Below, one piece after another: positions 1 to 7,065 of a stretch of DNA of 35,836 nucleotides (position 1 is its first letter; each line of letters opens with the position of its first letter). Location of the stretch: IMG/VR virus record IMGVR_UViG_2645727821_000018; one strand, written 5' to 3'. Under the pieces are notes generated by a model that worked only from the letters and a program-made list of their open reading frames with translations, had not been told where the DNA came from and ran no database searches. The position numbers and the translations under genes were made by a program. The DNA comes from a virus. Lineage: Duplodnaviria; Heunggongvirae; Uroviricota; Caudoviricetes.

Positions 1-327
1 ATGAGAAATATCGTCATAGCGAAGGAGTTCTCCAGAACACCTTTCGGACGTTACACAACGGATAGCCCACACAGTGCGGAAAGATTTCGTAGAGAGTTTT
101 TGGTGCCTGCGCTGAAGGGTACTGAACAGGAGATTGTGGTTGATTTTCGCGGTATAGCACTGGGTGTTGGTTCCTCTTTCTTAGAAGAGGCGTTTGGAGG
201 TCTCATCCGTAAGGAAGGGATACCTAAAGCCAACGTTAAAGCACGTTTGATTATAAAAAGTGATGTTCCGTTCTACAAAGAACAGATTGATAAATTTATT
301 GATTTAGCACAACCAGAAAGAGTATAA
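1..327 (+). CDS. Small STAS-like protein (resembles DUF4325-type proteins); ATG is at the window edge so the true N-terminus is not certain
   Basis: 108-aa ORF; the motif pattern GRY...F...L.PAL......VD..G......SFLEEAFGGL matches my recollection of STAS-like DUF4325 proteins. Stop codon lies 10 bp before the next gene, whose likely SD overlaps it. Lies outside the integrase, at the prophage edge. Confidence 0.45.
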   Translation: MRNIVIAKEFSRTPFGRYTTDSPHSAERFRREFLVPALKGTEQEIVVDFRGIALGVGSSFLEEAFGGLIRKEGIPKANVKARLIIKSDVPFYKEQIDKFIDLAQPERV

Positions 328-337
328 GAGGCGATAG

Positions 338-955
338 TTGATCAGTACGGAACCAATGTCATTAGTAGCACAAATAGGACAGTATTCGTGGTGTATCACA
401 GTAGTTAGCGTCTGCTTAGTTTTCATTGGATGGCGAGTTGCGTACAATAATTCTGTAAAACTGGCGACACGTTCTGAATCGAAATCAATTATTGATGCTA
501 TTTCAAAGTTAGTTATTGAAATTTCTGATATTTCTTCTAACTATTGGCTCAGTCAGACAACTCAACCTAAAATTAGAGCATCAAAGCATCGATTGTTAAG
601 GTTGCAAAAGGATAGAACAAAGGCTTCTGTTTCATACTTGTTAACTATCTTGGCTAAAGCTCAACAAGTTTCCAAACTGATTTGCATTTTGGAAAGCAGA
701 GGACTGTATATACCTGACGAGGTGTTCTCATCTGTACTAGAGAAAGCAACTCTGGATTGTGAGGTCGCTCACAAGCTTTCAGATGCCGATCGCCCGGTTA
801 AAGCACAAGAAGTAATTGATGCTTGTATGGGAGTTATCGAAGCGTTACATACTTCTTTTCAAAGGTACCACCCTCCCAAAAAGGATCGTACCTTTATGCA
901 AAGGTTAAAAATTTGGTTTCAAACAGTAGACGATTGGCATAATGACTTAAAATAA
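338..955 (+). CDS. Hypothetical membrane-anchored protein (one N-terminal TM helix, about 165-aa helical soluble domain)
   Basis: 205-aa ORF with a TTG start at 338 preceded by AAGAGG (325-330); an alternative ATG is at 356. Hydrophobic stretch CITVVSVCLVFIGW near the N-terminus. The 3' end overlaps the integrase stop convergently (947-955). No family recognised. Confidence 0.5.
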   Translation: MISTEPMSLVAQIGQYSWCITVVSVCLVFIGWRVAYNNSVKLATRSESKSIIDAISKLVIEISDISSNYWLSQTTQPKIRASKHRLLRLQKDRTKASVSYLLTILAKAQQVSKLICILESRGLYIPDEVFSSVLEKATLDCEVAHKLSDADRPVKAQEVIDACMGVIEALHTSFQRYHPPKKDRTFMQRLKIWFQTVDDWHNDLK

Positions 956-2327: not shown

Positions 2328-3218
2328 TTAACGAATAGTGTCGTTACTTTGAAGTACAGCAAATGCCATTAATACTTCTAAAGTATATCTTCTATAAAAT
2401 TTAACAAAACCAACATAGAAAACATAGACGAAGAAAAAGCTAAGCATTATTGAAAGTAAACTATAAAGATAATCACTATGAGTACATAATCGATAAATAA
2501 AGGTTGGAACTGATACCCAAAATGAAATTATAAAGATTAAACATATGTTTCTGCAAAAACCATATAATGCAACATAGTTTTGAATTTTTGTTTGATGTTG
2601 TTTTGAAAACTCATAAACATAATGATATGCCAATCTGAAGAGATCATCATCAAGTCCGTTTTTATCTTGTAATAATTGGCGATTTGTTATGAACTTTTTC
2701 TCATAACCTTCTTTGATCATTAACCATGTTGTATTAGCTAAATGAAATGGTAGAGATTGAGAATAACATAGTTTTTGTGTTATAAAATCCCATAGTATTA
2801 TTGGACATAATACGCATTTGATTATGCGATTCTTTATTTTTGTTTTTTTATCAGCGCTTCTCTCATCGCATGATGGGCTACAAATGCTTTCTGAGGTATC
2901 TATCAATTTTTTAAATAGATATTTGGAAGGATATCCTAATTCTTTATTCATGTATTTTTCGATAAAAAATGCTGACGTGATAGAAATAAAATGTCCAGCT
3001 ATATAAGATATAATAACTATTGAAGCGTAGTTCAAAATGCCAAAGATTTGACTTTGACCTCTGAGCAATTCACTTAAGTCAATAACAATATCTAGATCGA
3101 ATGTCAAACCACAGAAATACATTAATAGGATAAAAAAACCACCTGGTATTAAATATCCAAGAAAGTCATAGAATGAGAATGGATTTTGATTCATTGTTGC
3201 TCTCCAATAATTTTTCAA
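2328..3218 (-). CDS. Hypothetical polytopic inner-membrane protein (AT-rich accessory gene)
   Basis: 296-aa ORF with several hydrophobic segments (for example FFILLMYFCGLTF, IVIISYIAGHFISITSAFF, ICLIFIISFWVSVPTFIY). Strongly AT-rich compared with flanking phage DNA. Sits directly downstream of xis in the leftward operon. Confidence 0.6.
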   Translation of the reverse strand: MKNYWRATMNQNPFSFYDFLGYLIPGGFFILLMYFCGLTFDLDIVIDLSELLRGQSQIFGILNYASIVIISYIAGHFISITSAFFIEKYMNKELGYPSKYLFKKLIDTSESICSPSCDERSADKKTKIKNRIIKCVLCPIILWDFITQKLCYSQSLPFHLANTTWLMIKEGYEKKFITNRQLLQDKNGLDDDLFRLAYHYVYEFSKQHQTKIQNYVALYGFCRNICLIFIISFWVSVPTFIYRLCTHSDYLYSLLSIMLSFFFVYVFYVGFVKFYRRYTLEVLMAFAVLQSNDTIR

Positions 3219-3302
3219 TTTGTAATATAACCTATATCTATATGTTAATAAATTACTTATATGTTCTTTTATGGCAGAGTTTGAATTCGTACGTGCTGAT
3301 TT

Positions 3303-3827
3303 TTACGACTCAGTTAACTCTTTAAAGCGTTCCATAAACATCCCATAGGTATGGCCTGGCGACAGTGGAATAACTTTGAACATCTCTGTTGCCGGGATAC
3401 CTTCCAGTACGGGCCAGAAAGAGCCATCATCAAGCCCGAGATCGCGGCGTTCGGTTGCCAGCATGATGAGATCGGCATATTTCACGGGCGTACTCATAAC
3501 CGGGGGTAACCCGTATTTCTCACGGATTACGGCGTCTATTTTTTCTTCCATCCGTTTATAGTCAGGAAGAAGGCGTTTCAGTGGCGCCGGGATGTCCTGG
3601 CAATACGCTTCTGTTGCATCATGCATTAACGCTTCAAAAGCAAATTCCTGCGGTACCAGTTGGCTGCAAAGCACCGCATGTTGGGCGACGCTGTAGAAAT
3701 GTGAAAGATGTCCTGCAAAGCGACAGATATTTGAAAGAGAAACCGCGATATCGTTAATAACGATGTCGTCTTTATTTATCCTGTCATAATAAAAATGCTT
3801 CCCGGAAAAAGTTTTAATAAATGACAT
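3303..3827 (-). CDS. HD-domain phosphohydrolase (YfbR/YfdR-like 5'-deoxynucleotidase family)
   Basis: H...HD metal-binding pattern (SVAQHAV ... LMHDATEAY). Start placed at the internal ATG at 3827 with GGAGA upstream, about 174 aa; the ORF track extends to 3854. Confidence 0.8.
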   Translation of the reverse strand: MSFIKTFSGKHFYYDRINKDDIVINDIAVSLSNICRFAGHLSHFYSVAQHAVLCSQLVPQEFAFEALMHDATEAYCQDIPAPLKRLLPDYKRMEEKIDAVIREKYGLPPVMSTPVKYADLIMLATERRDLGLDDGSFWPVLEGIPATEMFKVIPLSPGHTYGMFMERFKELTES

Positions 3828-3954: not shown

Positions 3955-4779
3955 TCAGGCGGTAAAAGTACCAATAAAGGTTTCTACTTTGCTGTCCTTG
4001 AATTTCTCAACAAGCAGATCACGAAATTCGTTAGCCATTTCTTCCTGCACTGCTTCCAGCTGAATAATGCGCAGAACCAGTACAGGACGATCGCCAGTGA
4101 TAATGCTGAGGCGTAATTTAAACGGACGTTCTTTCAGGCCTTCAAACGGAACGCATTTAAATTCAAATGCCACTGGCATAATATCTTTGGTCTTCGCTTC
4201 GACAGACTCCATCAGGGAGCGTTTGCCGCTGAAGTCATTGTCTTCAAAATCAGCGGTCTGGTTTGCTTCAATCGTGATTTTACGGACTGCCGCAGCCGCT
4301 TTTGTTGCCTGAATGGCATCACCATTAGCATCAAAGCCCACAAGGTAGTCGGCCCAGTCTTCAATCCATTCTGCCAGTGACTTCTGGGAGTTACGCTCGC
4401 CGTTAACAGACAACAGAGCAGAGAACGGTGCTGTCTTTTTCAGTTTGAGAGTGGCGGTGTTATCTGCGTGACCAGGCTCATCAATAGTACCCAGGTTAAG
4501 CACACTGACGGCACGCATATTATCGGCATCGATAAAGCAGCGGGTGCCTTCATCCGCAAGATCTTTAGAATAACGGGTAAAGTCATCGATGCTGGCAGTG
4601 GAAAGCGCACCACGGAAACGGAAGCGATTTAAATTAAATTTTTCCAGATCATGAATGCGGAAATTTTCAGGTAATGCCACTGCGTCGGCACCAATCTTAC
4701 TGATAATTTCATTAACACCCTGAGCAGAAATAAGGGCATGGATTTGATTAATTGCGGTTGCGTCTAAGTTCTGAGACAT
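3955..4779 (-). CDS. Prophage protein of the YfdQ-like (DUF2303) family
   Basis: 274-aa ORF; same size and gene neighbourhood (YfdP-like, YfdQ-like, HD-domain YfdR-like) as the E. coli CPS-53 prophage genes. Recognition-level assignment. Confidence 0.7.
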
Positions 4780-4844
4780 AATAAGTCCTCACTATATAAA
4801 GATATTCAGTGATGAGATAAATAATCAGTTAATTAAGAACGATA

Positions 4845-5207
4845 TTAATGACCTGCTGCGCGGAGTTTTCCGTCAGGTTCACCGGCAAGAGTCAGTAATT
4901 GTCCCTGGTCTTCCTGCAGAATAGTCAGGCGACCACCGCGATTGACATACATCGGCGTTTCGGTGGTGTCTTCTTCGGAAATTTTCCCGCGGTTAGTCGG
5001 ACGAACATATGAGAGTTTGTGTTTTATTTTCACACGGTTCTCATCAAACGGTTCGATTTCCAGGTTGAGCGAGACCTTACCTTTGGTTTTCGTGTTCATC
5101 ACACCGGAAGCGACTTCACTGAGAACTGCGCCGATTTTGGTTTCAAATACGCCGCCGTCCAGCTCCCCGATAAATTCCTGCACGTTGGTACTGCGTTCGC
5201 TAGCCAT
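4845..5207 (-). CDS. Prophage protein, YfdP-like (about 120 aa)
   Basis: The ORF track gives 226 aa, but the ATG at 5205-5207 has a GAGGAG SD 8 nt upstream and the upstream extension reads like non-coding GC-rich sequence, so the short form is preferred. Confidence 0.65.
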   Translation of the reverse strand: MASERSTNVQEFIGELDGGVFETKIGAVLSEVASGVMNTKTKGKVSLNLEIEPFDENRVKIKHKLSYVRPTNRGKISEEDTTETPMYVNRGGRLTILQEDQGQLLTLAGEPDGKLRAAGH

Positions 5208-5257
5208 TTTGCTGCTCCTCATCATATCGACCCTGCAAGGTCGGTTGGTTTCTCCAC

Positions 5258-5390
5258 AAAACAGAGAAGAACACCTGCGGTGGCAGCCGCCCGGGTGGAT
5301 TGGGTTATGAGCCCGTCGTCCGGTGATGCTCTTCTCTGTTTTGTAAAAAGAGCGGTACCAGCCGGAAGCAAGGGTACAAGCTGGTACCGC
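5258..5390. promoter_or_regulatory. Dyad-symmetry cluster in a 470-bp untranslated region; candidate leftward operator/promoter and structured leader
   Basis: 15-bp inverted repeat arms (about 5258-5272 and 5329-5343, 14/15 complementary) around a 56-bp GC-rich spacer. An 11-bp perfect inverted repeat GCGGTACCAGC / GCTGGTACCGC (5352-5362 and 5380-5390). GTAC-core motifs recur as in the cI-cro intergenic region. Confidence 0.4.
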
Positions 5391-5675
5391 CAGGACTACA
5401 CACAGCATAAAGTTGTGGTGCCGGGTGCCTCCCGGTGCCTGGCGAAGGTTGCACACCAGGCGGGTGGGTATCCACAGAAGGTCGACTGTCAGCCTCAACC
5501 TTAACCCGCGTGCGCTGAGCCGCATTCACCACAACGCTAAGGATTCTCTCTGGTTGAAAATACTTAGCTGTTATGTGCCTGCTTTTAGCCACATCAGGCG
5601 AGGTGGGCCTGGTTATTCCCCAACAACAAGGATTCGGCTAATCTGGATGACTCTGTTCTTAGAGGGGATAATTAA

Positions 5676-6188
5676 ATGGGAGCGATTTATGTTAAACGTT
5701 TGATTCTGTCGGTAGCACTGATAATACCGATAGCATCCAATGCTTCTGATGCTTTGAACCAGCCGAGCAGTAGTCTAAATGATGGTGTTGAGACTTTTTT
5801 TATTTCCTGCTTTGATATGCCTCAGGAAACAACTACTGATATGGACGCTTGTCAGAGAGTTCAGTTAGCTCAGGTTAGTTGGGTTAAGAATAAGTATTCG
5901 GTGGCCGCCCTGAATCGTTTGAAACAAGACAACAAGGATGATCCACAGCGTCTGCAGGAATTAACTGCTTCTTTTAACGCGGAAAGTGAAGCTTGGACAG
6001 AATTAATTGAGAAAGCGTCAAAGTCCGTCCAGGTTGATTATGCAGGAGGAACTATAGCTGGCACTGCAGTTGCATCACGTCAAATTGGTCTTCTGGAATT
6101 ACAATCCCACGATATCTGGGAGCACTGGCTACGATTCGAGGACTCAACTCCTCCTCTTTTGCCAGAACCAAAGTTCAAATCTGAGTAA
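5676..6188 (+). CDS. Secreted or periplasmic accessory protein with N-terminal signal peptide (possibly DUF1311 / LprI-like fold)
   Basis: SD AGAGGGG 8 nt upstream of the ATG. N-terminus LILSVALIIPIASNASDA looks like a Sec signal peptide. Followed by an intrinsic terminator. Convergent with the repressor gene. Confidence 0.6.
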   Translation: MGAIYVKRLILSVALIIPIASNASDALNQPSSSLNDGVETFFISCFDMPQETTTDMDACQRVQLAQVSWVKNKYSVAALNRLKQDNKDDPQRLQELTASFNAESEAWTELIEKASKSVQVDYAGGTIAGTAVASRQIGLLELQSHDIWEHWLRFEDSTPPLLPEPKFKSE

Positions 6189-6390: not shown

Positions 6391-7065
6391 TTAGGCTTTG
6401 ATTTTGTATCTTCTTGGTTTTCCTGAGAAAATCACAGTACCAATTATAGAGCAATTACCGTTGATCTTAATGTAAGGCTCAGGCCAGTTTGGGTTTAACG
6501 CTTTGAGATAACGCTGTGTCCCATCTTCTATCAACCTTTTGAAGGTGGTTTCACCTGTATCGTGCATCAATGCAATAACGTCGTCACCGTGGCAGGCAGG
6601 TACTTCAGGATCGACAAAAATCATGTCTCCCGGGCGGTACTCATCAATCATTGAATCACCTATCACCCGCAAGATATAAGTCATTTCCCCACAGGGTACA
6701 GGGCAGGGATACGTTTCTGCTGTGCTCAAATCAACCTCAGAATATCCAACTTCTTTCCATGCTCCGGCCTGTACCCATGATATGACAGGGACTAATGTGA
6801 TTTGTTTATTAGTGATTGAAACATCAGGTTTTTTTGTGATGTTCGTTGTCTGGTGTTCTTGATCGAGCCATCCGACAGGCAGGTCGAAACATTTTTCGAT
6901 GTGTCGTGCCATGCTGTCACCGATATTTTTAGTAGCACCATCTCCCATAAACCTGCTGGTCTGGGTTGGCTCGCGATCAATCATAGTGGCAAAGGAAGAA
7001 TTCCCGCCAACACCATCTCTCAGTTTTCTGGCGTTAGACCGCCGGATGTCATGGATTGTTTTCAT
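6391..7065 (-). CDS. cI: CI-type prophage repressor (N-terminal HTH, C-terminal S24 LexA-like autopeptidase)
   Basis: 224 aa; C-terminal GDSM motif (RVIGDSM) typical of S24 peptidase and LexA-like repressors; divergent from a cro-like gene across an operator-bearing intergenic region. Confidence 0.9.
   Translation of the reverse strand: MKTIHDIRRSNARKLRDGVGGNSSFATMIDREPTQTSRFMGDGATKNIGDSMARHIEKCFDLPVGWLDQEHQTTNITKKPDVSITNKQITLVPVISWVQAGAWKEVGYSEVDLSTAETYPCPVPCGEMTYILRVIGDSMIDEYRPGDMIFVDPEVPACHGDDVIALMHDTGETTFKRLIEDGTQRYLKALNPNWPEPYIKINGNCSIIGTVIFSGKPRRYKIKA

Follow-up and report, generated by a model that had tools for sequence, protein, structure and literature searches.

Why does a lambdoid prophage of Escherichia coli carry, immediately before its excisionase and integrase genes, an extremely AT-rich gene for a multi-pass membrane protein, and what might that protein do? 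We consider this question for a stretch of 35,836 nucleotides (IMG/VR record IMGVR_UViG_2645727821_000018), referred to below as the window, in which the gene, here labelled X, lies on the minus strand at 2328-3194 and encodes WP_001075212.1. X belongs to a large, pan-bacterial family of proteins with four transmembrane (TM) helices that is remotely related to Csx27. As a whole, the evidence is best explained if X is a phage-exclusion determinant that acts from the cytoplasmic face of the inner membrane and is of the abortive-infection type, a reading to which we give a probability of about 0.45, a little under even odds. An earlier description made from the letters alone (the sequence-only reading) had named X as a candidate superinfection-exclusion or abortive-infection gene, which is a reasonable hypothesis. 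The gene is already catalogued as hypothetical in RefSeq, as PHROG 12528 and, for a P2 homologue, as system #3 of Table S5B of Rousset et al. (2022). What appears to be new is the recognition that an abundant prophage cargo gene falls in a standalone, longer Csx27-related family, together with a confident model that has no counterpart among solved structures and a conserved site that would face the cytoplasm.

Gene X and its relationship to Csx27

A six-frame listing gives a minus-strand open reading frame (ORF) at 2328-3218, which counts 296 codons from a TTG, and the sequence-only reading had taken all of these codons as a protein of 296 residues. The frame is present, and its probable coding part is 2328-3194: translation most probably starts at the ATG at 3194, giving 288 amino acids and a stop codon, because a Shine-Dalgarno sequence (GGAG, minus strand, 3202-3205) lies 7 nucleotides 5' of this codon, RefSeq places the start of WP_001075212.1, its "hypothetical protein" of 288 residues, at the same ATG, and the N-terminal MxxQNPFS common to all homologues (the MNQNPF position) corresponds to it. 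On the same three grounds the eight in-frame codons that begin with the TTG (3195-3218) are probably untranslated. X is a genuine gene, since it is conserved in 957 clusters at 50% identity; the chance of a stop-free frame of 296 codons at its composition is about 2e-11. The guanine-plus-cytosine (GC) content of the coding sequence is 28.4% (21% at third codon positions), where the mean of the window is 51% (z = -3.4); no other stretch of equal size in the window has a lower value, and in E. coli it lies 23 points under its flanks; the AT-rich block extends from the stop codon of yfdR (about 3300) to that of X (2328). The earlier remark on a sharply AT-rich block unlike the DNA around it is borne out by these values.

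X has no Pfam match at E <= 0.1, and its sole PHROG match is a full-length one to phrog_12528 (PHROG 12528, function unknown; E = 8.9e-174, profile positions 1-288 of 288 against residues 9-296 of the long ORF). Among 5.8 billion proteins, a word-indexed search returned 593 relatives, all of them "hypothetical", with the enterobacterial ones grouped at about 95%, 78% and 50% identity. An exhaustive hidden Markov model search of 1.84 billion cluster representatives extended the family to 957 clusters at 50% identity, 485 of them at E <= 1e-10, whose members are nearly all full-length at about 270-300 residues. Among species-representative genomes the family is found in Gamma-, Beta- and Deltaproteobacteria, in many Bacteroidota, and in Bacillota, Chloroflexota, Acidobacteriota, Gemmatimonadota, Spirochaetota and Verrucomicrobiota, as well as in one metagenome-assembled genome of the Acholeplasmataceae. 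Plasmid carriage is limited to 4 of 72,556 records, and phage GenBank records yielded no DNA near-identical to X and only 9 distant matches at the protein level.

Csx27 is a membrane protein that serves as an accessory to type VI-B1 CRISPR-Cas systems (Smargon et al., 2017). Judged by profile comparison, the homology of X to Csx27 is remote and real, and X is not an orthologue. The PADLOC model of Csx27 matches X at E = 1.4e-5, collinearly over residues 6-268, and matches 60 of 73 diverse family members (best 2.2e-10), all far under orthologue cut-offs. The independently built NCBIfam model (NF040557) matches X over residues 5-43, which hold the N-terminal motif and TM1, at E = 0.02 and 14.9 bits against a 65-bit cut-off, and matches 13 of the 73 members (best 2e-6); tm_4, a second TM model associated with type VI-B loci, matches 19 of them. 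Pfam TM families gave scattered single matches to the same 73 proteins, none of them consistent, so the similarity to Csx27 is not a generic likeness of TM helices. The two proteins share four predicted TM helices, a collinear similarity that is strongest at NPFSxYDFLGYxxPG and TM1, and genes in immunity-related genomic positions. In the PADLOC alignment residues 6-268 of X fall on model positions 4-188 of 206, which implies an insertion of about 80 residues; whereas Csx27 has about 200-220 residues, X is longer by this amount and has an expanded cytoplasmic domain. Csx27 is absent outside VI-B loci according to Smargon et al. (2017) and confined there to Bacteroidota, whereas the family of X is pan-bacterial and standalone. 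In a survey of 77 family loci we found neither a Cas13b-like neighbour nor a CRISPR array, one weak 3-copy repeat in locus L073 aside, and the neighbours of about 1000 residues that were checked proved to be HsdR, NrdA or SIR2-STAND proteins. True Csx27 orthology and a hidden type VI-B locus were rejected, the scores lying far under the cut-off and neither Cas13b nor an array being identified in the 77 loci; in the window the neighbours of X are yfdR and xis. The statement that no family was recognisable therefore does not hold, X being both a member of PHROG 12528 and a remote homologue of Csx27; the remote homology search recommended at that time uncovered these two relationships, and neither a Pfam family nor a solved structure.

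X is not alone in combining four TM helices with similarity to Csx27 profiles, which are also the features of a broad Csx27-like superfamily. Makarova, Gao, Zhang and Koonin reportedly described such an "expansive" four-TM family by computation in 2019, found with competence, ubiquitin-like and DNA-modification genes, and are said to have proposed that its members form DNA channels. X resembles that family in architecture and in profile similarity, and the role reportedly suggested there is the handling of foreign nucleic acid at the membrane. The operon partners reported for it are natural-transformation components, ubiquitin-system proteins and WYL helix-turn-helix (HTH) regulators; the 25 Pfam families that occur most often in the 142 genes directly flanking the subfamily of X include no partner of these kinds, and between them these genes match 132 different Pfam families.

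Topology and conserved residues

X has four hydrophobic segments (residues 10-34, 48-78, 207-238 and 241-267), which coincide with long helices of an all-helical AlphaFold2 model (predicted local distance difference test score 89.1, predicted template modelling score 0.88). The hydrophobic segments and the model agree on four TM helices, in keeping with the earlier view of a polytopic membrane protein with several hydrophobic segments. The model places TM1 at residues 8-27, a short periplasmic helix at 35-43, a TM2 that runs into the cytoplasm at 48-86, a bundle of short helices at 89-196, TM3 at 198-237, and TM4 with a long cytoplasmic helix at 243-287. Lysine and arginine number 21 in residues 79-208, four in the C-terminal tail, one in the acidic first loop and none in the first ten residues, and by the positive-inside rule this distribution predicts that both termini lie inside, with the helical domain of residues 79-206 (~130 residues) and the C-terminal helix in the cytoplasm.

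The pattern of conservation is best seen against this predicted topology. An alignment of the 73 diverse sequences, with a mean identity of 34%, has 38 columns that are at least 90% conserved, and these are grouped in four blocks. The first is the N-terminal N4-P5-F6-S7-x-Y9-D10-F11-L12-G13-Y14-xx-P17-G18; the second, at the cytoplasmic end of TM2, comprises Y64, G67, H68, S74, E79 and Y88-P89-S90; the third, leading into TM3, comprises H191, E195, H200, K203, N206-Y207-V208-A209-L210, G212 and R215; and the fourth, at the exit of TM4, comprises F263, K265, F266, E273 and M276. The periplasm-facing halves (residues 21-47 and 217-255) and the distal cytoplasmic domain (residues 96-180) vary strongly, at an entropy of about 3 bits. 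Under the predicted topology all four conserved blocks would lie at the cytoplasmic interface of the membrane, a pattern that would suit a site for gating or catalysis linked to a sensing region in the cytoplasm that varies. That the conserved site would face the cytoplasm and the periplasmic parts are unconstrained speaks against a protein that recognises phage components in the periplasm.

A Foldseek search of the Protein Data Bank (PDB) with the model of X gave no match to a solved structure, and a growth-hormone match from a PDB sequence-profile search (E = 0.02) was judged spurious. X resembles the stator proteins MotA, ExbB, TolQ and ZorA in having four TM helices, a C-terminus in the cytoplasm and a large cytoplasmic domain that separates TM2 from TM3, and weak Foldseek matches to MotA, PomA and ExbB reflect this likeness of topology; homology was rejected (Foldseek E > 0.6, TM-score <= 0.25, no match to Pfam MotA_ExbB).

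Genomic setting and proposed function

In lambdoid prophages X directly precedes xis-int, and the recombination modules that it adjoins are of at least four unrelated types: that of the window, with an Arm-DNA-bind_2 integrase and a 68-residue excisionase; that of the 78%-identity allele of E. coli described below, with a PrtN-type excisionase; that of a Salmonella element beside fljAB; and those of Enterobacter, with DUF4224 and Phage_int_M, and of Klebsiella phage P7641. The slot between xis and yfdR is variable, as further E. coli prophages whose int, xis and yfdR are the same hold two small ORFs there, and prophages that share only yfdR carry beside it either a methyltransferase and an exonuclease or a cassette of a major facilitator superfamily transporter, a hydrolase and a LysR regulator. 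This variation among related prophages, together with homologues in phage cargo and defence positions, upholds the suggestion of a horizontally acquired accessory gene. In P2-like coliphages the homologue lies between gpA and gpQ and is preceded by a DUF4760 gene. This interval is the anti-phage hotspot of P2, home of old and tin, and the pair is listed there as system #3, "DUF4760 + 4-TM protein", in 1,102 of 18,150 loci, with four TM helices by Phobius (Rousset et al., 2022; PMC9122126). The second protein of system #3 shares 42% identity with X across 287 aligned columns (E = 2e-64) and is a full-length four-TM homologue with the same motifs and the same Csx27 match, carried as phage cargo in a defence hotspot; it differs from X in its DUF4760 partner and its gpA-gpQ site, where X has a lambdoid slot next to xis. 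Outside phages of this kind, homologues are found in an Aliifodinibius operon (L032) of the order HsdM-HsdS-X-HTH/ImmA(IrrE)-HsdR, a type I restriction-modification system; in Salinimicrobium (L024), where a type IIG restriction-modification gene (E = 3e-283) is followed by a SIR2-STAND NTPase (nucleoside triphosphatase) and then by X; beside NYN, Halo_RE and CyanoTRADDas_TM genes in the cargo of an integrative element; and in a Mu-like and a Serratia prophage.

The DUF4760 partner (4464-5843 of loci L002 and L004; Pfam E = 1.8e-34) has a single TM helix, as do MotB and ExbD, but there is no acidic residue in this helix, and it matches no PADLOC model. Two GenBank records differ on this stretch, the one giving DUF4760 and the other small ORFs on the opposite strand, and in the DefensePredictor supplement other, longer DUF4760 proteins are predicted defence genes related to PD-Lambda-6. 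No DUF4760 gene is present in the window or among the neighbours in the 77 loci, and a two-component system with DUF4760 was rejected because the partner is restricted to P2-like phages. The Salmonella element beside fljA/fljB (L096-L099) is very common and was found in 1,282 collection blocks; X is essentially the sole gene between its cI-like repressor gene and xis-int, one ORF of 47 residues being called in one assembly, and the gap of ~740 nucleotides upstream of X means that expression in the lysogen would need a promoter of its own.

Crude gene calling and all-against-all clustering of the 77 loci revealed no conserved partner gene, the commonest neighbour cluster being present in 8, and no fused domain is recognisable in the long family members, whose extra length consists of TM helices, insertions and tails. 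In 76 of the 77 loci the family gene is poorer in GC than the DNA on either side (median difference -8.5 points). With no partner, no fusions, low GC and varied neighbours, X is a self-contained, mobile cargo gene of chromosomes and prophages. In one metagenome-assembled genome (L105, 4100-10500) it belongs to a series of roughly twelve small ORFs, co-oriented and mostly unannotated (NADAR, RraB and NTP_transf_6 among them), that looks like an array of cassettes; an integron cassette setting was rejected there, as a regular-expression search found no attC-like sites on either strand.

The frame of X is intact at 99-100% identity in more than 200 E. coli genomes, and the 78%-identity allele, present in more than 2,000 assemblies and very common in E. 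coli, lies in a prophage beside zur/dinF/lexA with a PrtN-type excisionase. The DNA of the window and of this allele is 97-100% identical from yfdQ through the first ~45 codons of X, falls to 55-90% across the remainder of X and then continues into unrelated xis and int genes, which places an approximate mosaic recombination joint inside X at 3000-3060 (minus strand). The most divergent patches coincide with the regions that are unconstrained across the family. Since a phage-mosaic crossover lies within the gene, the divergence of the alleles is not evidence of an arms race, and diversifying selection between them was rejected in favour of a crossover near 3060 followed by unrelated xis and int.

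From this analysis we infer for X a defence function, cytoplasmic sensing, a membrane-damaging mechanism, oligomerisation and a promoter of its own. X occupies the variable slot for cargo that separates yfdPQR, the early-left module, from xis-int. In the mechanism that we propose, D10, H68, S74, E79, Y88-P89-S90, H191, E195, H200, K203, N206, R215, K265 and E273, from the four conserved blocks, would form a site of gating or effector action; trigger specificity would come from the distal part of the cytoplasmic domain, which is poorly conserved (residues ~96-180); and X, probably as an oligomer, would compromise the barrier or the energetics of the membrane upon infection, with abortive infection as the outcome in analogy to RexB or Csx28. 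Lambda RexB and the VI-B2 protein Csx28 are, like X, small inner-membrane proteins encoded by phages or defence loci, RexB also with four TM helices, and both act through membrane depolarisation; they differ from X in having no sequence or fold similarity to it and in their dependence on RexA and Cas13b, respectively, where X has no conserved partner.

An abortive-infection-type membrane effector is more likely than an injection blocker because the part of X that is conserved would face the cytoplasm and the periplasmic parts vary freely, because the nearest functional analogues, RexB and Csx28, depolarise membranes, and because a family that occurs in bacteria with Gram-negative and Gram-positive envelopes and in wall-less ones would be expected to have a universal target, for instance the membrane, rather than the entry apparatus of one phage. 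Injection-blocking superinfection exclusion, in which X would stop phage DNA from crossing the inner membrane and the cell would survive, as with P22 SieA, T4 Imm and HK97 gp15, would suit a prophage-encoded polytopic inner-membrane protein in an accessory slot; the P2 hotspot houses exclusion genes, and the Csx27 family has been proposed, according to papers citing Makarova et al. 2019, to form or affect DNA membrane channels. We consider it unlikely, as the loops on the periplasmic side, and the halves of the TM helices on that side, are short and show the least conservation, the invariant polar residues would all face the cytoplasm, the family has a breadth of hosts unlike that of the narrow phage-specific Sie proteins, and X has no similarity to SieA, SieB or Imm profiles. 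It is similarly improbable that X is a membrane-embedded enzyme or carrier for a lipid or lipid-linked envelope precursor in the cytoplasmic leaflet, serving lysogenic conversion or housekeeping: no match to an enzyme family was found in Pfam or NCBIfam and no structural match in the PDB, there is no recurrent tie to any one pathway, and the polysaccharide clusters that might suggest one are themselves hotspots of horizontal transfer. Such a role would nevertheless account for the dense invariant His, Glu, Asp, Lys, Arg, Ser and Tyr residues at the predicted membrane-cytoplasm interface, as seen in many intramembrane hydrolases and transferases, for the several loci that lie amid glycosyltransferase, epimerase and WecG genes, and for the many that have no mobile-element or defence hallmark.

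The arrangement of the locus gives some standing to a different proposal, by which X serves the phage itself as an early-lytic or counter-defence function on the early-left transcript and modulates host membrane physiology or immunity: yfdPQR-X-xis-int are tightly packed and co-oriented, with no terminator and a weak candidate promoter before X, the yfdR-X junction is retained in two prophage lineages, and Csx27 represses Cas13b interference. Yet E. coli has no type VI-B systems and the 77 family loci have no Cas13b or array, most family members are chromosomal and outside phages, and the P2-like copy is its own unit in the old/tin locus, in opposite orientation to the parM-like and gpA genes, all of which leaves this proposal with a small likelihood. 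Least probable, and by our estimate very unlikely, is that X is a selfish or neutral hitch-hiker with no consequential phenotype in E. coli, for example one silenced by H-NS; its extreme AT-richness and the recombination joint within it are what one would expect of such a gene, but the frame is intact in the >200 genomes and the 78% allele persists in the >2,000 assemblies mentioned above, and about 38 columns are under strong purifying conservation across phyla.

Several observations weigh against an abortive-infection role for X. Such AT-rich DNA is typically silenced by H-NS in E. coli, and X is likely to be silenced in this way. Its tight, co-oriented packing in the early-left operon, with no convincing terminator and a weak candidate promoter, means that X may be expressed on induction rather than in the lysogen. 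Restriction-modification-like genes were found in 4 and integrase genes in 8 of the 77 loci, raw counts taken with local seeds within 8 kb in species-representative genomes, and many loci look ordinary: in Pseudomonas, for instance, the gene follows nrdAB, and other copies separate a urease operon from an unrelated cluster or lie in polysaccharide clusters. The defence-context signal of the family appears real, though not overwhelming, and is modest outside enterobacterial phages. PADLOC defence models gave no match to X other than the weak one to Csx27; neither the accession of X nor Csx27 was found in the supplements of the E. coli defence screens DefensePredictor and Vassallo et al.; and we found no published phenotype for any family member. 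System #3 is not among the systems cloned by Rousset et al. (2022), whose entry carries no functional note, and Csx27 lowered rather than raised Cas13b interference in E. coli (Smargon et al., 2017).

A more far-reaching proposal, which we put forward tentatively and hold to be doubtful, is that X and its family of ~950 clusters are pan-bacterial single-protein membrane immunity effectors and the ancestral stock of VI-B1 Csx27, with an undescribed fold in which a cytoplasmic-face His/Glu/Asp/Lys/Arg site would gate or catalyse membrane damage once the variable cytoplasmic domain senses infection; were this so, Csx27 would gain a mechanistic context, and the role of the third most abundant P2-hotspot cargo would be accounted for. 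If X is a defence or exclusion factor, a function would be given to a gene carried by hundreds of extraintestinal and avian pathogenic E. coli genomes (UTI89, S88, APEC O1 and the E. coli type strain among the carriers), to its 78% allele in thousands of E. coli and Salmonella assemblies, and to the cargo that ranks third in frequency at the P2 defence hotspot (1,102 loci). Csx27 would then also be tied to a much larger standalone family, which would suggest a recruited membrane effector or regulator and not a CRISPR-specific invention. X is directly testable, being a small single-gene system with a confident predicted fold, no solved relatives and a short list of invariant residues.

The prophage and its other accessory genes

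The window is a lambdoid prophage adjoining glaH(csiD)-lhgO-gabDT in E. coli ATCC 11775, UTI89, S88, APEC O1, IHE3034 and others, and at least 80% of the region is present in 205 of 5,426 complete genomes. Along the minus strand come yfdP, yfdQ (DUF2303), yfdR, a spacer of 108 nucleotides, X, a gap of 41 nucleotides, xis and int. The last conserved gene of the yfdP-yfdQ-yfdR early-left module is yfdR (3303-3827), which encodes an HD-domain 5'-deoxynucleotidase (Pfam, PHROG and RefSeq); the excisionase gene (2080-2286; 68 residues, phrog_2917; PHROG and RefSeq) starts 41 nucleotides past the stop codon of X and is followed by that of a tyrosine integrase with Arm-DNA-bind_2 and Phage_integrase domains (947-2119; Pfam and RefSeq), all on the minus strand. 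X was earlier placed downstream of xis; in the order of transcription, yfdR, X, xis, int, it is upstream. It was also said to occupy the position where lambda carries sieB and kil. In lambda, sieB adjoins N and kil adjoins cIII and gam, so the analogy of position is inexact; the segment directly upstream of xis is the non-essential ea8.5/ea22 region. No SieB, Kil or RexB profile matches X, and its identity with any of these proteins was rejected on the lack of a Pfam match at E <= 0.1, on PHROG 12528 as the only match and on the different map position.

The AT-rich spacer from the yfdR stop codon to the X start codon (minus strand, 3195-3302) is identical in the 78% E. coli allele, and its last ~85 nucleotides are partly conserved in Salmonella. 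It contains a weak candidate for a promoter of X (minus strand, 3252-3224), composed of TTTATT (3252-3247), a 17-nucleotide spacing and TATATT (3229-3224), whose hexamer positions are retained in the Salmonella copy (TTTATA and TACATT) despite a different upstream gene; a scan for strict consensus promoters found no strong promoter before X and did not call this candidate. The hairpin 3' of the X stop codon (CCCGT-GTGCAG-ACGGG; minus strand, 2302-2317) is not convincing as a terminator; it has no T-run, so read-through from X into xis is likely.

A second AT-rich cargo block (35-40% GC) lies between the host gene glaH/csiD and the integrase gene (window 1-955; L001 5886-7756). It comprises a gene just outside the window for a 303-residue protein with a weak HATPase_c_2 match, a gene for a DUF4325 STAS-like protein (1-327) and a gene for a protein of 199 or 205 residues of phrog_30059 (338 or 356 to 955); no PADLOC match was found. 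Of the 441-residue phrog_5816 profile, no more than the C-terminal 100 residues are matched by the DUF4325 protein, which suggests that the HATPase_c_2 and DUF4325 genes are fused in other phages. E. coli NWU_4 has an AAA ATPase gene on the glaH side of its integrase gene, and the block may be another variable slot, possibly with a pair of the kinase and anti-sigma-antagonist kind. The plus-strand gene at 338-955 overlaps the 3' end of the convergent, minus-strand integrase gene by 9 nucleotides (947-955), which puts it inside the prophage and not beyond attL.

The other low-GC islands of the window are two ORFs of 31-33% GC, at 13857-14192 (111 residues) and 15617-15868 (83 residues), which flank the lysis cassette of holin-like (14245-14649), lysozyme (14636-15112) and Rz-like (15109-15546) genes and look like further morons. 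The mechanical ORF at 4845-5525 on the minus strand (226 residues) over-extends yfdP, for which RefSeq gives 120 residues (4845-5207) and then a pseudogene with a frameshift. Between the early-left operon and the gene of a LexA/cI-like repressor (6391-7065, minus strand), a typical position for a moron, a plus-strand gene (5676-6188) encodes 170 residues with a hydrophobic N-terminus, a putative signal peptide, and a weak match to the lysozyme inhibitor LprI.

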